DNA of 35,867 nucleotides, taken from IMG/VR virus record IMGVR_UViG_2648501437_000030, one strand, 5' to 3'. Both the position numbers and the translations under genes were made by a program. Positions 2,168-9,384 of this stretch are shown here, piece by piece. How positions within the stretch are numbered: position 1 is the first letter of the stretch; every line of letters starts with the position of its first letter. The notes beneath the pieces were generated by a model. The model saw nothing but the letters and a program-made list of their open reading frames with translations, made no database searches and had not been told where the DNA came from. The stretch is from a virus (lineage: Duplodnaviria > Heunggongvirae > Uroviricota > Caudoviricetes).

Positions 2168-4156
2168 ATGAAAGAGTGGTATACAGCGAAAGAATTGCTT
2201 GGTTTTGCTGGTTTGCCAAAGCAAGCAACTAACATTACACGTAAGGCACAAAGAGAAGGCTGGGTGTTTAGGCAAGTTACAGGTACTAAAGGTGTATCAT
2301 TTGAATTCAATATCAAATCATTTCCTGTTGCATTACGTGCTGAAATTTTATTGCAACAAGGAGGTATTGAAACAAGCCAGGGCCGTTTTGAAATCGCCCG
2401 CCCCACGCTGGAAGCCCATGATTATGATCGTGAGGCACTGTGGAGCAAATGGGATAACGCCAGCGATTCCCAGCGCAGACTTGCTGAAAAATGGTTGCCT
2501 GCGGTTCAGGCTGCAGACGAAATGCTGAACCAGGGGGTTTCAACGAAAACGGCATTTGCGACCGTTGCAGGACATTACCAGGTCAGCGCATCCACTTTGC
2601 GAGACAAATATTACCAGGTACAGAAGTTTGCGAAGCCTGACTGGGCGGCTGCGCTTGTTGATGGACGTGGTGCATCCCGTCGCAACGTTCACAAAAGTGA
2701 ATTTGACGAGGATGCCTGGCAGTTTCTGATTGCAGATTATCTGCGACCAGAAAAACCCGCCTTCCGCAAATGTTATGAGCGTCTGGAACTGGCAGCCCGC
2801 GAGCATGGCTGGAGTATTCCCTCCCGTGCCACGGCCTTTCGCCGGATTCAGCAACTGGACGAGGCAATGGTTGTTGCCTGCCGTGAAGGTGAACATGCAC
2901 TGATGCATCTGATACCGGCACAACAGCGAACTGTGGAACACCTGGACGCCATGCAGTGGATCAACGGCGACGGTTATCTGCATAACGTTTTTGTACGCTG
3001 GTTTAACGGTGATGTGATCCGCCCGAAAACATGGTTCTGGCAGGATGTGAAAACACGAAAAATTCTGGGCTGGCGCTGCGATGTAAGCGAGAACATCGAT
3101 TCAATTCGCCTCTCGTTCATGGATGTGGTGACACGCTACGGCATCCCGGAGGATTTTCACATCACCATCGATAACACCCGTGGTGCAGCGAATAAATGGC
3201 TGACGGGGGGCGCGCCCAATCGTTACCGCTTTAAGGTGAAAGAGGACGATCCAAAGGGGCTGTTTTTACTGATGGGCGCGAAAATGCACTGGACAAGCGT
3301 TGTTGCCGGTAAAGGCTGGGGCCAGGCAAAACCTGTTGAACGTGCTTTCGGTGTTGGTGGGCTTGAGGAATACGTTGATAAGCATCCGGCACTGGCTGGC
3401 GCATATACGGGGCCAAATCCGCAGGCAAAACCTGATAACTATGGCGACCGTGCTGTTGATGCAGAGCTGTTTCTGAAAACCCTTGCTGAAGGTGTTGCGA
3501 TGTTCAATGCCAGAACAGGTCGTGAAACAGAAATGTGCGGAGGCAAACTTTCGTTTGATGACGTTTTTGAGCGTGAATACGCCAGAACGATTGTGCGTAA
3601 GCCGACCGAAGAACAAAAACGGATGCTGTTGCTGCCTGCCGAGGCGGTGAACGTTTCACGCAAAGGCGAGTTTACGCTTAAAGTTGGCGGCTCCCTTAAA
3701 GGTGCAAAAAACGTTTATTACAACATGGCGTTAATGAATGCCGGCGTGAAAAAAGTTGTGGTCAGATTTGATCCGCAGCAGCTACACAGCACGGTTTATT
3801 GCTACACCCTGGACGGTCGGTTTATCTGTGAAGCGGAATGTCTGGCACCTGTTGCGTTTAATGATGCTGCGGCAGGCCGTGAATATCGCCGCCGCCAGAA
3901 ACAACTGAAATCTGCAACTAAAGCAGCCATTAAGGCGCAGAAACAAATGGACGCGCTGGAAGTTGCTGAACTGCTGCCGCAGATAGCCGAACCAGCAGCA
4001 CCAGAATCAAGAGTTGTTGGTATTTTCCGGCCTTCCGGTAACACGGTGCAGGTGAAATACCAGGAACCCGATGAGGAATATGAAACTGATCGTGATGAAT
4101 ATCTGAATCATTCGCTGGATATTCTGGAACAGAACAGACGTAAAAAAGCCATTTAA
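2168..4156 (+). CDS. A: DDE transposase MuA
   Basis: 662 aa; from about residue 65 onward near-identical to phage Mu transposase as recalled. Confidence 0.95.
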
Positions 4157-4194
4157 TTAACGTTTAAACTAAATTTAATTACGAGGTTATTCAG

Positions 4195-5133
4195 ATGAAT
4201 ATTTCCGATATTCGCGCAGGACTGCGCACGCTTGTAGAAAGTGAAAAAGCTACTTATGCACAAATTGCCCGCGAGTCCGGCGTGGCCGCAGGAACGTTAA
4301 GCGCATTCGTGAATAACAAGTACAACGGCGACAATGAACGTGTTGCGCAGACGCTGGAACGCTGGCTGGAGAACTATCACCGTGCCGCAGAGCTGCCAGA
4401 ACCACCGCGTTTTGTGGAAACCAGAACAGCACGCCAAATCTGGACGAGTATGCGTTTTGCCAGTCTGACTGAAAGTATTTCTGTTATCTGCGGTAATCCA
4501 GGTGTGGGAAAAACTGAAGCAGCCCGCGAATTTCGTCGCACCAATAACAATGTCTGGATGATCACCATTACCCCATCCTGCGCCAGTGTTCTGGAATGTC
4601 TCACTGAACTGGCGTATGAACTGGGAATGAATGACGCACCGCGCCGCAAAGGGCCGCTCTCCCGCGCTTTGCGACGCCGCCTTGAAGGTACGCAGGGGCT
4701 GGTCATTATCGACGAAGCTGATCATCTTGGCGCTGAAGTTCTGGAAGAACTCCGCCTGTTGCAGGAATCCGCCCGTATTGGCCTTGTTCTGATGGGGAAT
4801 CACCGCGTTTATTCAAACATGACCGGTGGTAACAGAACGGTTGAATTTGCCCGACTGTTTTCCCGTATTGCCAAACGGACGGCAATCAATAAAACCAAAA
4901 TTGATGATGTAAAGGCCATTGCGGATGCCTGGCAAATTACCGGCGAAAACGAGCGGGAATTATTACAGCAGATTGCGCAAAAACCAGGTGCACTTCGCAT
5001 CCTGAACCACTCGCTGCGCCTTGCGGCCATGACCGCCCACGGCAAAGGTGAACGTGTTAATGAAGATTATCTGCGTCAGGCTTTCCGTGAATTAGACCTC
5101 GACGTTGATATTTCAACCCTGCTGCGCACGTAA
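4195..5133 (+). CDS. B: Transposition ATPase / target DNA activator MuB
   Basis: 312 aa, N-terminal HTH, Walker A GNPGVGKT, Walker B IIDEAD; directly downstream of A. Confidence 0.9.
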
Positions 5134-5146
5134 GGAGAGCGAAATC

Positions 5147-5374
5147 ATGATGTCACGGAATATCAAAATGGCAACGGAAGTAAAGAGCTGGTTACAGGAG
5201 CGCGGCAGCCACGTCAACGAATCCTGGCTGGGCGTGGCCCGCCCGGTGCTTGAAATTACCTGCCCGCCACCGGAGCTGGTCAGAAACGCTGTCAGGATTA
5301 TGGAGCATAAATCAGGGGTTGCCCGTTCCGTATGGACGGCCCGCCTTAATGGTTGCCAGATTATCTGGCGTTAA
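5147..5374 (+). CDS. Small early protein at the position of Mu kil (function not established)
   Basis: 75 aa, RBS AGGAGAG 8 nt upstream, immediately after B. Confidence 0.5.
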
Positions 5375-5406
5375 TAACGGCTTATTTATTTGTGAGGAAT
5401 AACAAA

Positions 5407-5676
5407 ATGGCAAAAGTAATCTTTGAATTTAACCGCATGGAAGATGTTGAGTTTCAGAAAAAAGGAGGTTTCTTTGTAGGAATGAGTGTGCAACTGGAAG
5501 AACAGTCTCCTAAGGAGCAAACCGGACCGCATGACGTGATGGCAGGCATTATCAAGAGCATGGCTCCTGAAATTATTGAAAAAGCAACCCAGGAGTTGTT
5601 GAAGTCAGCCAGAGAACTTGGGCTGGAAGCCGAAGGCGAGTTATTCCGGTATAACCCGGATGCAGCCAAACATTAA
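5407..5676 (+). CDS. Hypothetical early-region protein
   Basis: 90 aa ORF with RBS GAGGAA; no family recognised. Confidence 0.5.
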   Translation: MAKVIFEFNRMEDVEFQKKGGFFVGMSVQLEEQSPKEQTGPHDVMAGIIKSMAPEIIEKATQELLKSARELGLEAEGELFRYNPDAAKH

Positions 5677-5692
5677 TTTCAGGGAAGGAGGC

Positions 5693-5983
5693 ATGATGAT
5701 AATCACTCGCAAAAGATGGTCACGCGAAGACCGGGAATTTATCGAAGCCAGTGTCGGGAAAATGACCGTCGAGGAAATGGCGAAAAAACTGAACGTTGCC
5801 CCAACCGCCCTACAGGCACATGCCAGAAGGCACGGAATATCGTTGTGTGCATACCGGGTCAGTGAGCACGACAAATATTTGTGTCGTGAACTTTATAAAG
5901 AAGGGCTGGCTATTCATGTCATTGCCCAAAAGATGGAATTAAGCAATCGTGCTGTATCCAGCATTGTATACAGCGAATATTAA
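5693..5983 (+). CDS. Hypothetical early-region protein with possible helix-turn-helix segments
   Basis: 97 aa from ATG 5693 (RBS GGAAGGAGG); HTH-like stretch EEMAKKLNVAPTALQAHARRHGI. Confidence 0.5.
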   Translation: MMIITRKRWSREDREFIEASVGKMTVEEMAKKLNVAPTALQAHARRHGISLCAYRVSEHDKYLCRELYKEGLAIHVIAQKMELSNRAVSSIVYSEY

Positions 5984-6003
5984 TTAACAGGAGCTTTATT
6001 TAT

Positions 6004-6528
6004 ATGGCTAAACCAGCAAAACGAATCAAGAATGCCGCAGCGGCTTATGTTCCACAGTCCCGCGATGCCGTGGTATGTGATATCCGCCGGATTGGTGACC
6101 TGCAACGCGAAGCGGCACGACTTGAAACGGAAATGAATGACGCTATCGCTGAAATTACAGAGAAATACGCCTCACAGATTGCGCCGCTAAAAACCAGTAT
6201 CGAAACCCTTTCAAAAGGCGTTCAGGGATGGTGTGAAGCGAACCGCGACGAACTGACGAACGGCGGCAAGGTGAAGACGGCGAACCTGGTAACCGGCGAT
6301 GTGTCATGGCGTCAGCGCCCACCATCGGTAAGTATTCGCGGTGTGGATGCGGTGATGGAAACGCTGGAGCGTCTTGGCCTGCAACGCTTTATTCGCACGA
6401 AACAGGAAATCAACAAGGAAGCGATTTTACTGGAACCGAAAGCGGTCGCAGGTGTTGCCGGAATTACAGTTAAGTCTGGAATTGAAGATTTTTCCATTAT
6501 TCCGTTTGAACAGGAAGCCGGTATTTAA
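6004..6528 (+). CDS. gam: Gam-like host-nuclease inhibitor (DNA-end-binding protein)
   Basis: 174 aa, coiled-coil N-terminus, resembles Mu Gam in sequence and position. Confidence 0.85.
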   Translation: MAKPAKRIKNAAAAYVPQSRDAVVCDIRRIGDLQREAARLETEMNDAIAEITEKYASQIAPLKTSIETLSKGVQGWCEANRDELTNGGKVKTANLVTGDVSWRQRPPSVSIRGVDAVMETLERLGLQRFIRTKQEINKEAILLEPKAVAGVAGITVKSGIEDFSIIPFEQEAGI

Positions 6529-6627
6529 TACCACCATTAATATTTAATTAATTCACTTTCTTTTAATTATGGCGCGATGCGTCAGGGGATTGCTCGCGCC
6601 TGAAACAGATTACTAAGGAATAAAAAA

Positions 6628-7170
6628 ATGGTTGATGCAAAAGTTTTGAACGGTGTCAGCACATTATTACGGACTTACGGGCGTCTGACCTGTGGTGTTC
6701 TGGCTGAAAAAATGAAGATGCCACCTTCCTCAATGGTGTATTTCCTGCGTGATGCGGTTGATGCCGGAGTTCTCACTGAATGCAACGGATTTTATGACGT
6801 TCCGCGCCCTCGTCCGACGCCTCCTGTAAGACGAAACGCAACAACGGAACACCCCGATGTTGATGATGCTCAATGGTGCGCGTTCCGCCGCTCTTTGCCC
6901 TGGCTGGAAGGCAATGCCATTCCGGCACTGGCAAAAGAATTTGCGACAGGCGTACTGACCTGCGAGTCGGTTTACATCGTTGCTGAAGTGGATGACGAGA
7001 TGTGCAAACAGGGAATGCCCCGTTTTGTGATGGCGTATATCGATATCCGGCTGGGGCGCTTTATTTGTGGTTCCAGTGGCTGGAATATCACCGACCACGT
7101 CATGCGCTATCTCATTCTTGATTATTCACCAGCTCCGGCCGCAACACAGGAAGTCAGTGAACATGATTAA
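6628..7170 (+). CDS. Hypothetical early accessory protein, possible N-terminal winged-helix
   Basis: 180 aa, RBS AAGGA; first gene of a three-gene overlapping cluster; no family recognised. Confidence 0.55.
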   Translation: MVDAKVLNGVSTLLRTYGRLTCGVLAEKMKMPPSSMVYFLRDAVDAGVLTECNGFYDVPRPRPTPPVRRNATTEHPDVDDAQWCAFRRSLPWLEGNAIPALAKEFATGVLTCESVYIVAEVDDEMCKQGMPRFVMAYIDIRLGRFICGSSGWNITDHVMRYLILDYSPAPAATQEVSEHD

Positions 7171-7345
7171 GTCAATTGGCTTTGTCCTGCTGGTTGGCAC
7201 CTGCGGGAATGATGCCTGTGATGCCATCCCTGTAACGGAAAAAATCTGGCCCACCGAGCAGGCATGTATGCAGGTGATGGAGCGCATACAAAAACATTAT
7301 CCCAATGAAATCTTTTATTGCGAAGAGGTATTAAGAAATGAATAA
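7163..7345 (+). CDS. Small Cys-rich protein with hydrophobic N-terminus (possible exported or lipoprotein-like peptide)
   Basis: 60 aa from ATG 7163, overlapping upstream stop (ATGATTAA); N-terminus MIKSIGFVLLVGTCG; four cysteines. Confidence 0.4.
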   Translation: MIKSIGFVLLVGTCGNDACDAIPVTEKIWPTEQACMQVMERIQKHYPNEIFYCEEVLRNE

Positions 7346-7727
7346 CGCAGAGAAAAATGAAATTAAATCCGCATCCGCCAGCACCAGAAAACATCTTTAT
7401 GATTTTTATGTCGCCTATAACCAGTGGTTAAAAAACGGAGCGCAAGAAACGGAAGGGGAAGGGTTTATTCGGGGAGTCGGATTATGCGCCAATGTTTATG
7501 ACTATTTTGAATCAATCGGAGCAGACAGCGAGGCTGCGCTAGAACAATTACATGCGGATTTTGTCGCGAGTGGGCTGGATGAATCCCTGCCATTTAATGT
7601 AGATAACGTGCACTACCATGATGAATGCCTACATGACAGATGCCACCTGAATTCTGCTCGTGTGGCATGGGTCGAAAAACACTGCATTAAGGAGATGGGG
7701 CAAAATGAGTCGCACATCCCTGATTAA
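7338..7727 (+). CDS. Hypothetical acidic early accessory protein with Cys/His cluster
   Basis: 129 aa; start overlaps upstream stop; HYHDECLHDRCH...HC motif; no family recognised. Confidence 0.5.
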   Translation: MNNAEKNEIKSASASTRKHLYDFYVAYNQWLKNGAQETEGEGFIRGVGLCANVYDYFESIGADSEAALEQLHADFVASGLDESLPFNVDNVHYHDECLHDRCHLNSARVAWVEKHCIKEMGQNESHIPD

Positions 7728-8256
7728 ATTAATTCATGTTGCCCGCCGGGAGTTGCACCTCGACGATGACACTTACCGCGCCTTTCTGGTGCAGTGCACG
7801 GGCAAAACCAGTTGCCGCGAGCTGTCCGTTGCACAACTGGAACAAGTGCTCGATGCCATGAAAGAGCGCGGTTTTAAAAAGCAGAATAAACATCCCCGCC
7901 GTCGCTTTAAGGGGCATGTCACACCGCGCGAGAAGATTTATAAAATCTGGCAGCAGATGTTTCTTGATGGTTTCGTATCCGATATCAGCGACGCCGCGCT
8001 GGACAAATACGTTGAACGCCTGACGGCCAGACGTAATGGCGGTCAGGGTGTTTCCACGCTGGCATGGTGTCACGGGGAATCGTTGCAGGTTGTGCTCGAA
8101 ACGCTCAAACAGTGGCACATGCGCTGCATCCGTGAAGCCTTTGCCCGACATGGTGTGCCTTTACCTGTAAGCCCATCCGGGCGGGAACTGCGCGGCTATG
8201 ATGCACTGACCAGTGCGTATGCCCGCGCACGAAACAGCGGGAGAATTGCTGTATGA
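7705..8256 (+). CDS. Mu gp16/GemA-like early protein
   Basis: 183 aa from ATG 7705 (RBS AAGGAGA); N-terminus MSRTSLIKLIHVARRELHLDD resembles the Mu gp16 family; located just before mor. Confidence 0.6.
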   Translation: MSRTSLIKLIHVARRELHLDDDTYRAFLVQCTGKTSCRELSVAQLEQVLDAMKERGFKKQNKHPRRRFKGHVTPREKIYKIWQQMFLDGFVSDISDAALDKYVERLTARRNGGQGVSTLAWCHGESLQVVLETLKQWHMRCIREAFARHGVPLPVSPSGRELRGYDALTSAYARARNSGRIAV

Positions 8257-8702
8257 AACAGATGAAAGAGCAGGATTTATTCGAAGACCTCCGGGACGAC
8301 AGCGTTCTGGAATATCTTCATGATTACCAGGAAAACACCGCTTATCCGGCGTTACTTTCTGAACTAAACGCACTGCTGCGTAAAGAGCTGGCCCGGATTG
8401 GCGCAGACCCTGCTCATTCCCTTGAGCTGGTTGTGGCGATTTGTCGCCATATCGGCGGGATGCAGGTTTATGTTCCGAGGGGGAATATTCTGGAGAATCT
8501 TGTCCGGGATATGCGTATCTGGCGTGATTTTAACGGCCATAATATTCCTGAACTGGTTCAGCGTTACGGAGTGACGTATAAAACCGTCTACAAGGCCATC
8601 AAACGGATGCGACGTCTGGAGCGCAATAAATACCAGCCGGATTTGTTTTACCCCTCCCCGAACCTGCCTCACCCCGTTCGTCGTCCGCCACGACGCCCTT
8701 AA
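8253..8702 (+). CDS. mor: Mor/C-family transcriptional activator
   Basis: 149 aa; DPAHSLELVVAICRHIGGMQVYVPRG and C-terminal HTH YGVTYKTVYKAIKRMRR match Mu Mor as recalled. Confidence 0.85.
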   Translation: MKQMKEQDLFEDLRDDSVLEYLHDYQENTAYPALLSELNALLRKELARIGADPAHSLELVVAICRHIGGMQVYVPRGNILENLVRDMRIWRDFNGHNIPELVQRYGVTYKTVYKAIKRMRRLERNKYQPDLFYPSPNLPHPVRRPPRRP

Positions 8703-8706
8703 TCAA

Positions 8707-8732
8707 TGAAGCCGGTAAATCCGGCTTTTTTT
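8707..8732 (+). terminator. Rho-independent terminator after mor (GCCGG-TAAAT-CCGGC plus T7)
   Basis: Short GC stem, 5-nt loop, T-run; the same 26-mer recurs at 16428..16453. Confidence 0.7.
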
Positions 8733-8787
8733 ATGCCTCCGGCACCATGAAGCAGACCACGTTTAACTCTGCTTCACAGGTGTTTTT

Positions 8788-9384
8788 ATGGAAAATCAAA
8801 AATTCTCCCCGGCCTTTGAGCATGCGCTGAATTTCATTCTGCGTCCCGATATCGAAGGCGTCTATGTCAATGACTCCACTGACCGTGGCGGCGAAACCAA
8901 ATACGGCATTTCTGACCGCCGCGACGGTGTGATTGACGGCAAAACCGATGTCAACGGTGACGGTAAACCGGATACCCGCATCAAAGATTTAACCCGCGAA
9001 CAGGCCGCACAGATTTACCTGCGTGATTACTGGCTGCCTGCCGGATGTGACCAGTGGCCTGATGGCGTGGCGCTTTTTGTGTTTGATGCGGCGGTTCAGC
9101 ATGGCGTTAAAAAGGCTATCAAACTTTTGCAGGAAGCCGCTGATGTGGATGCTGACGGCATCATCGGGCCGCGTACCCGCAAGGCCGTGAGCCAGTCCAC
9201 CCCTGACTGGCTGCTGGCCCGCTGTATTGTCCGTCGCTCCCGCTTTTATGCCGACATCATCAAATCAAAACCCGCCCAGGGCAAATACCTGAACGGCTGG
9301 TTTAACCGCATGGAAAAGCTGACCGACGCCTGTCTGGAAATCATCGATACCCCTCTGGGCATCATGTCCGCCACGCGGGGGTGA
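8788..9384 (+). CDS. Endolysin (GH108-like N-terminal domain plus C-terminal peptidoglycan-binding domain)
   Basis: 198 aa; DRGGETKYGIS catalytic-region motif and C-terminal GWFNRM motif; first late gene after mor. Confidence 0.8.
   Translation: MENQKFSPAFEHALNFILRPDIEGVYVNDSTDRGGETKYGISDRRDGVIDGKTDVNGDGKPDTRIKDLTREQAAQIYLRDYWLPAGCDQWPDGVALFVFDAAVQHGVKKAIKLLQEAADVDADGIIGPRTRKAVSQSTPDWLLARCIVRRSRFYADIIKSKPAQGKYLNGWFNRMEKLTDACLEIIDTPLGIMSATRG

Follow-up and report, generated by a model that had tools for sequence, protein, structure and literature searches.

Conserved gp11 and two exchangeable small-gene cassettes in the early operon of an Escherichia coli Mu-like prophage

The viral record IMGVR_UViG_2648501437_000030 (35,867 nucleotides (nt), the whole of which is called the window here) holds an Escherichia coli Mu-like prophage. 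Between its gam and gemA genes lie three overlapping open reading frames (ORF1, ORF2 and ORF3) of 180, 60 and 129 amino acids (aa), all on the same strand. An earlier, sequence-only reading presented them as one accessory cluster whose proteins match no recognised family, and as a plausible site for anti-defence or superinfection-exclusion genes. Here we report that ORF1 is, by sequence and position, the ortholog of the conserved Mu early gene gp11, and that ORF2 and ORF3 are independent, exchangeable cassettes located in a hotspot between gp11 and gemA. The identity of each gene and the cassette behaviour of ORF2 and ORF3 are nearly certain. To the picture as a whole, a conserved gp11 with two independent accessory cassettes of a Mu-like early operon, we assign a probability of about 0.6. 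The analysis is of value mainly as a correction, in that conserved gp11 makes up one third of the 'unknown cluster' and typical cassettes of a mosaic hotspot make up the rest.

ORF1 is colinear with Mu gp11 over the full length and 87.6% identical to it over residues 1-177. The Pfam family PF25754 (Gp11_C, 'Phage Mu Gp11 C-terminal domain') matches ORF1 with E = 8.5e-39 and 132.2 bits against a cut-off of 27, covering profile positions 1-78 of 78, and it is matched by all 19 aligned gp11 homologs as well. The PHROG family phrog_1949 matches with E = 1.4e-102. Homology at the DNA level with Mu gam and gp11 is unbroken from 6003 to 7142, near the end of ORF1 (blastn), and ORF1 is placed directly 3' of gam, as is gp11 in Mu. 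The gene is present in every Mu relative examined. In the phage collection it was found in 16 records, all of Mu-like phages, at 71-88% identity, and across 80 IMG/VR loci the identity is 62-97%. The sole variable part is a Pro-rich linker (residues 58-82), which lies between an N-terminal region of approximately 57 residues, a putative winged helix, and the Gp11_C domain at residues 91-168. The most likely role for such a protein would be nucleic-acid binding or regulation in early lytic growth. The statement that none of the three proteins matches a recognised family is therefore wrong for ORF1. ORF2 and ORF3 are without Pfam or NCBIfam matches and belong, on profile evidence, to existing but uncharacterised PHROG families.

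The semi-essential region of Mu contains 14 ORFs, which are dispensable and few of which have assigned phenotypes (PMC3325207). A literature search on the PHROG and Pfam identifiers, the Mup locus tags and the Mu semi-essential functions found no account of gp11-gp15, ORF2 or ORF3. The Gabija preprint deals with Gam and GemA only.

Homology with Mu restarts exactly at the ATG of gemA (7705), and the 562 nt between the two breakpoints stand in for 1297 nt of Mu with gp12, gp13, gp14 and Mu_54. Protein comparison found no resemblance of ORF2 or ORF3 to these four Mu proteins. The interval was surveyed in 87 related stretches, of which 80 are IMG/VR loci and the others the window, Mu, SfMu, a Citrobacter prophage and three E. 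coli prophages. Gap statistics come from the 74 stretches in which both anchor genes are present. The gp11-gemA gap varies from 69 nt, in a locus that is free of genes at this place (L043), to 2887 nt. The 74 loci contain some 15-20 recurring small-gene families in about 31 arrangements; this count is approximate because the gene calling behind it was crude (ATG-only and longest-first, sometimes with spurious antisense ORFs), whereas the gap lengths are robust. Together with the absence of ORF2 and ORF3 from Mu, these figures support the suggestion that the gp11-gemA interval is a variable accessory hotspot across Mu-like prophages. Mosaic accessory slots of this kind are a familiar phenomenon in the early operons of transposable and lambdoid phages. 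The survey includes a single insertion sequence, an IS3-family insertion in the gap of L030 (~3975-5143) with its transposase ORFs on the reverse strand.

The occupants of the hotspot in the window do not travel together. Of the 87 stretches, 19 carry ORF2, six carry full-length ORF3 and five carry both. ORF2 lacks ORF3 in 14 of the 19 loci that carry it, including two (L005 and L006) in which other genes take the place of ORF3, and L004 has kept ORF3 with ORF2 reduced to its last ~31 nt. When 5426 complete E. coli genomes were searched, 90 contained the gam-gemA region, 47 ORF2 and 16 full-length ORF3. The view of the three genes as an accessory unit is not upheld, since ORF1 is conserved gp11 and the other two assort independently. 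A toxin-antitoxin pairing of ORF2 with ORF3 was considered and is ruled out by the same independent assortment.

The three ORFs themselves are confirmed by their coordinates (Table 1), by PHROG matches to each of them (E = 1e-27 to 1e-102) and by the NCBI Prokaryotic Genome Annotation Pipeline (PGAP), which calls the same three coding sequences in E. coli XJ34, whose prophage is identical. The public databases already contain identical proteins under the name 'hypothetical protein'. The check on coding signal was positive. The ratio of nonsynonymous to synonymous substitution rates (dN/dS), calculated against relatives, is 0.08-0.14 for ORF2 (dS 0.15-0.26) and 0.24-0.29 for ORF3 (dS 0.52-0.62), which marks both as genuine genes maintained by purifying selection. 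The neighbours gam and gemA give 0.0-0.10 (dS 0.05-0.24) and are 97-100% identical in the same loci, in which the alleles of ORF3 are merely ~75% identical as protein. The high dS of ORF3 points to the exchange of old alleles and not to positive selection in place.

Table 1. Features of the gam-mor region of the window
Feature	Position	Strand	Basis or remark
gam (Mu Gam / Ku-like end-binding protein), upstream anchor	6004..6528	+	Pfam Phage_Mu_Gam 1.8e-43; 92.5% identity to Mu Gam
GC-rich hairpin GGCGCGA...TCGCGCC in the gam-gp11 spacer	6571..6600	+	fold -19.7 kcal/mol, z -1.6, without T run
ORF1, Mu gp11 ortholog, 180 aa	6628..7170	+	
Cassette segment without DNA homology to Mu	7143..7704	+	blastn breakpoints 7142 and 7705; Mu annotation
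ORF2, 60 aa	7163..7345	+	
ORF3, 129 aa	7338..7727	+	
gemA (gp16), downstream anchor	7705..8256	+	Pfam GemA 1.3e-32; 82% identity to Mu GemA; start inside ORF3
First terminator-like hairpin after gam, 3' of mor	8708..8728	+	marks the end of the early unit

ORF1 and ORF2 overlap in ATGATTAA and ORF2 and ORF3 in ATGAATAA, each of 8 nt, and the end of ORF3 reaches 23 nt into gemA. Shine-Dalgarno-like sites are situated 9-10 nt 5' of the starts: AAGGA (6615-6619) for ORF1, AGGAAG (7148-7153) for ORF2, GAAGAGG (7322-7328) for ORF3 and AAGGAG (7689-7694) for gemA. The start/stop overlaps ATGATTAA and ATGAATAA, combined with Shine-Dalgarno-like sites inside the upstream gene, have the form expected of translational coupling, and translation of the cluster would proceed by stop/start coupling. 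Overlaps of 8 nt or 4 nt are the rule in the operon, with gemA and mor overlapping as well, and therefore do not set ORF1, ORF2 and ORF3 apart as a unit.

ORF2 is an acidic protein. Its four Cys and its hydrophobic N-terminus agree with the earlier description of a Cys-rich peptide. It matches phrog_16556 (E = 1.8e-27; residues 3-59 against positions 2-55 of a 55-position profile) and has no match in Pfam, NCBIfam or PADLOC. Close homologs are known from E. coli, Salmonella, Shigella and Tatumella. More distant homologs (42-54% identity) are found in the early regions of unrelated temperate phages of Yersinia, Aeromonas and Hafnia, beside recombination or methylase genes. The invariant features are Cys14, Cys19, Cys35 and Cys53, in the spacing C-x4-C-x15-C-x17-C, and the hairpin motif CGxDACDAxPV. 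The AlphaFold (AF2) model has a mean predicted local distance difference test score (pLDDT) of 91.5 and consists of a hairpin of β1 (residues 2-14) and β2 (19-29), an α helix (32-45) and β3 (50-59); the pairing of β1 with β2 is modelled with a pLDDT of about 85-92. From this confident model ORF2 is predicted to be a ββαβ mini-protein whose hydrophobic N-terminus forms a core strand and not a signal peptide. A resemblance to DUF1482 (PF07358; E. coli YebW) was also tested. The two are alike in size, in the short hydrophobic N-terminus and in the pattern C-x4-C...TEQxC, but ORF2 itself has no Pfam match, the hhalign probability is 1.9% over 22 columns, and PF07358 is matched by one of eight ORF2 homologs (E = 0.059). 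Homology between the two is not established.

ORF3 is an acidic protein (isoelectric point 4.9) with four Cys and eight His. It matches phrog_6418 (E = 1.9e-49) and phrog_2510 (E = 3.1e-29) and no family in Pfam, NCBIfam or PADLOC; when Pfam was run against 100 diverse members of the ORF3 family, only scattered single chance matches were obtained. The AlphaFold model (pLDDT 89.9, predicted template modelling score 0.81) is a five-helix bundle in which the domain extends from about residue 17 to 118. The tail (119-129) is disordered in the model, and its DNA holds the ribosome-binding site and start of gemA. The characteristic motifs are FYxAYxxWLxxGA, GLCxN, LPFN and CHLNPxRxxWV. Among the 100 members, F23, W30, G48-L49-C50 and P85-F86 are conserved in all, N105 and R108 in 99%, E96 in 90%, H103 in 83% (with Tyr in 11%) and C102 in 64%. 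ORF3 carries F23, W30, G48-L49-C50, P85-F86, N105 and R108. The polar residues C50, E96, H103, N105 and R108 probably constitute one functional site. The Cys/His cluster that had been pointed out is present in ORF3 but is for the most part lineage-specific, the remaining His and Cys being unconserved in the family.

The ORF3 family is large. An exhaustive profile search (E <= 1e-3) recovered 926 representative clusters at 50% identity, and by tblastn the domain was located in 219 phage records, including phAPEC8-like, Rhizobium, Achromobacter, Erwinia, Campylobacter and Burkholderia phages. The relatives always sit within arrays of small early genes, for instance in the replication-to-Q region of lambdoid prophages, in the early left arm of a Burkholderia-type prophage and in an element with polA and ParB; in one large phage contig, NADAR and AcrVA2-like genes are found at a distance of a few genes. 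The ~150-kb virulent Phapecoctavirus (phAPEC8-like) phages carry 4-6 copies of the domain per genome, for example at L097 3495-3815, within long arrays of unannotated small early genes.

The domain is found alone, in two or three tandem copies and with long N-terminal modules. In P0032 it is joined to a dATP/dGTP pyrophosphohydrolase (MazG-like) domain. In some E. coli relatives (P0175 and P0177; L098 5001-5507) the domain is preceded by two predicted transmembrane helices at the N-terminus, and the genes for these proteins belong to the early array of an element that encodes a DNA polymerase A and a ParB of its own. P0170, a protein of 231 aa with 138 member sequences, combines in frame an ORF3-type domain (68% identity to ORF3) with the zinc ribbon of Mu gp13 (94% identity to gp13), and it occurs in the Mu-like prophages L034 (3467-4225), L035 and L042.

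A consensus scan of the plus strand between gam and the hairpin that follows mor identified neither promoter-like nor terminator-like sites, and Rfam gave nothing relevant at 5900-8900. The non-coding stretch 5' of gemA, which holds the annotated semi-early promoter in Mu, is absent from the window, where ORF3 runs into gemA (7689-7727). Expression of gemA and mor would here probably depend entirely on read-through from the early promoter. Most simply, ORF1, ORF2 and ORF3 would be internal cistrons of one long, repressor-controlled early transcript, towards the distal end of the non-essential ('semi-essential') early operon. Their products would appear after infection or induction and not in the lysogen. 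This position, without a promoter-like site of their own, makes superinfection exclusion by the lysogen unlikely and is in keeping with roles early in the cycle, either host-modulating or protective. In Mu, early transcription is known to have a low basal level (PMC3820752).

Profile searches were made with all three proteins and fold searches with the modelled ones. They assigned ORF1 to the gp11 family, gave matches in PHROG only for ORF2 and ORF3, and found no solved structural relative of ORF3 and no known enzyme with its fold. PADLOC-DB yielded no family for any of the three at E <= 1, NCBIfam yielded no match, and sequence searches of the Protein Data Bank (PDB) with single sequences and profiles returned nothing significant. 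The solved anti-defence proteins in the PDB (anti-CRISPR, anti-restriction and others) likewise gave no convincing match in sequence or fold. For the anti-CRISPR AcrIC8 (PDB 8g9s) there is no more than a resemblance: the identity is 8%, topoisomerase III and ClpS domains score equally well, and small alpha/beta folds of this type are common.

Several other explanations of the cluster were weighed. That at least one of the three ORFs is a chance ORF or pseudogene could be argued from the 60 codons of ORF2 and from the lack of a named function for any of the three, but this is effectively refuted: the PHROG hidden Markov model matches, the dN/dS values well below 1 and the confident AlphaFold models place the ORFs beyond chance, PGAP annotates them, and their length and frame are conserved in hundreds of database entries. 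It is also highly improbable that the three proteins work together as a single module or complex whose stoichiometry is set by translational coupling. The 8-nt overlaps, the adjacency of ORF2 and ORF3 in five surveyed loci and the fusion in P0170 of an ORF3-type domain to the Cys-rich gp13 zinc ribbon, which hints at a partnership of ORF3-type proteins with small Cys-rich ones, would fit such a module. Overlapping starts are general in the operon, however, and ORF2 is not homologous to gp13; most loci with ORF2 are without ORF3, ORF3 persists without ORF2 in L004, and gp11 is followed by many other genes or, in L043, by none. In ORF2, the hydrophobic N-terminus followed by an invariant Cys, as well as the canonical lipobox-like strings LVSAC and LISSC in homologs from Tatumella, Yersinia and Hafnia phages, could speak for an exported lipoprotein or membrane peptide of superinfection exclusion. 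In ORF2 the corresponding VGTC does not satisfy the lipobox rule [LVI][ASTVI][GAS]C, and just 11-13 residues precede the Cys. The best 19-residue Kyte-Doolittle mean is 1.22, and the hydrophobic run of ~11 residues does not reach the length of a membrane helix. A positively charged N-terminal region is missing from several homologs, the model pairs residues 2-14 with 19-29 in a β sheet, lipidation of one of the four conserved Cys would leave an odd number, and a gene of a repressed lytic operon would not be expressed in the lysogen. We regard an exported ORF2 as very unlikely.

We favour instead the reading of the locus as a conserved gp11 with two independent cassettes, in which ORF2 (Cys4 ββαβ) and ORF3 (five-helix, with invariant Cys, Asn and Arg) would be soluble cytoplasmic proteins, acting in the first minutes of lytic development as dispensable host-modulating functions. 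Within this reading we infer, tentatively and at rather less than even odds, that ORF2 and ORF3 bind host or phage macromolecules. Several observations weigh against the reading or parts of it. The promoter search was a simple consensus scan, from which a weak internal promoter could escape. The winged-helix matches of the gp11 N-terminus are below threshold (MarR chain 3bja, E = 0.47; HTH_20, 0.18; HTH_CodY, 0.066; PCI, 0.096). Every database name for the three families is 'hypothetical protein'. Finally, the invariant Cys50 of ORF3 with the conserved H103, E96, N105 and R108 could equally be a catalytic site. ORF3 would then be a small enzyme with Cys50 as its nucleophile, an idea with which the location of Cys50 at the N-terminus of helix 2 and the pyrophosphohydrolase fusion in P0032 agree. 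It appears improbable, as H103 is replaced by Tyr in some members and C102 is poorly kept, no known enzyme matches the fold, and the occurrence of the domain in tandem repeats, membrane-anchored forms and many fusions is more typical of a binding module. That ORF2 and/or ORF3 are early anti-defence proteins, which would guard incoming or replicating Mu DNA against restriction, CRISPR or abortive infection in the manner of the neighbouring Gam, is a possible but unlikely rival reading. More speculatively, and with little expectation, the Cys50/Asn105/Arg108 pocket of ORF3 might define a new class of phage inhibitor or small enzyme directed against a host defence or DNA-repair factor, with ORF2 as a second, independent small inhibitor.

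The surroundings of the cluster are those of an E. coli Mu-like prophage throughout. Over positions 6000-8300 the sequence is 100% identical to that of several E. coli chromosomal prophages (XJ34, XJ6-3, RM11911 and others), and it aligns with phages Mu, D108 and SfMu and with Yersinia Mu-like phages in two pieces at ~85% identity. The local genes run in the order transposase A, B (AAA ATPase), kil, a gp7-like gene, a gp9-like helix-turn-helix (HTH) gene, gam, ORF1, ORF2, ORF3, gemA, mor and an endolysin gene. The semi-essential region (5147-5980) is shorter than that of Mu and contains kil, the gp7-like gene (phrog_2230) and the gp9-like gene with a D5-type HTH; homologs of gp6 and gp8 were not found there by PHROG and Mu comparison. 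In the identical genome, PGAP annotates the gene 3' of mor (8788-9384) as an endolysin of glycoside hydrolase family 108, and the lysis cassette appears to differ from that of Mu.

A second insertion point, binary in character, was observed in the gam-gp11 spacer (6529-6627 in the window). The spacer is ~102 nt here and in Mu and ~653 nt in SfMu and many prophages (L002 1327-1975; about 35 IMG/VR loci), where a DUF5420-type gene (184-210 aa) stands directly 3' of a conserved GC hairpin. In the window this hairpin folds no better than many shuffled sequences. Many relatives have a small reverse-strand ORF just upstream of gemA: L001 (Mu) 3597-3863 minus, L002 3751-4017, L005 1888-2154 and L006 1933-2328. 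The Mu GenBank annotation has at this place the antisense, plus-strand ORF Mu_54 instead. Homologs of the reverse ORF extend down to 53% identity and those of Mu_54 are found at >=96% only, which suggests that the reverse ORF rather than Mu_54 may be the real gene; there were too few substitutions for the codon-position test. The window has neither.

Two insertion points of the Mu semi-essential region are thus mapped in quantitative terms, one between gam and gp11 that is empty or holds a DUF5420-type gene and one between gp11 and gemA that is highly variable. The analysis also brings out the ORF3 domain as a very widespread phage domain with a sharply conserved polar site and a natural fusion to gp13, for which neither a Pfam model nor a solved structural relative is available. 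Screens for anti-defence or host-takeover functions could reasonably be directed at the ORF3 family rather than at this one locus.

Comparison with known systems places each gene differently. Mu gp11 (formerly E10/E11/E12) is the direct counterpart of ORF1 in sequence, in its slot after gam and in the hairpin-containing spacer; ORF1 differs in having four more residues at the C-terminus and a slightly altered linker. The gp12-gp13-gp14-Mu_54 segment of Mu, and the corresponding segments of D108 and SfMu, share with ORF2 and ORF3 the slot, the early operon and the small size of the proteins, among them the 60-aa Cys-rich gp13, but have no sequence homology to them and, in Mu, are more than twice as long. 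The phrog_6418/phrog_2510 proteins, including P0170 and P0167 of the lambdoid nin/ea region, share the motifs and the ~100-residue five-helix domain of ORF3. In relatives the domain is supplemented by transmembrane anchors, by tandem copies, by zinc ribbons, by a MazG-like pyrophosphohydrolase or by long N-terminal modules, whereas ORF3 is the lone domain with a short tail that contains the gemA start.

Small host-binding proteins are known from Mu-like phages, such as the twitching-inhibitory protein Tip of D3112 and Aqs1 of DMS3-type phages. The exclusion genes of Fc02 are a further case in a transposable Pseudomonas phage (PMC9936078). None of these genes shows kinship in sequence or fold to ORF2 or ORF3. 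Some genes of this type are also expressed in the lysogen; ORF2 and ORF3, by contrast, lack a promoter-like site of their own. The likeness is one of principle: the early proteins of the transposable Pseudomonas phages are small, dispensable, variable and host-protein-binding, and ORF2 and ORF3 may be of the same kind.

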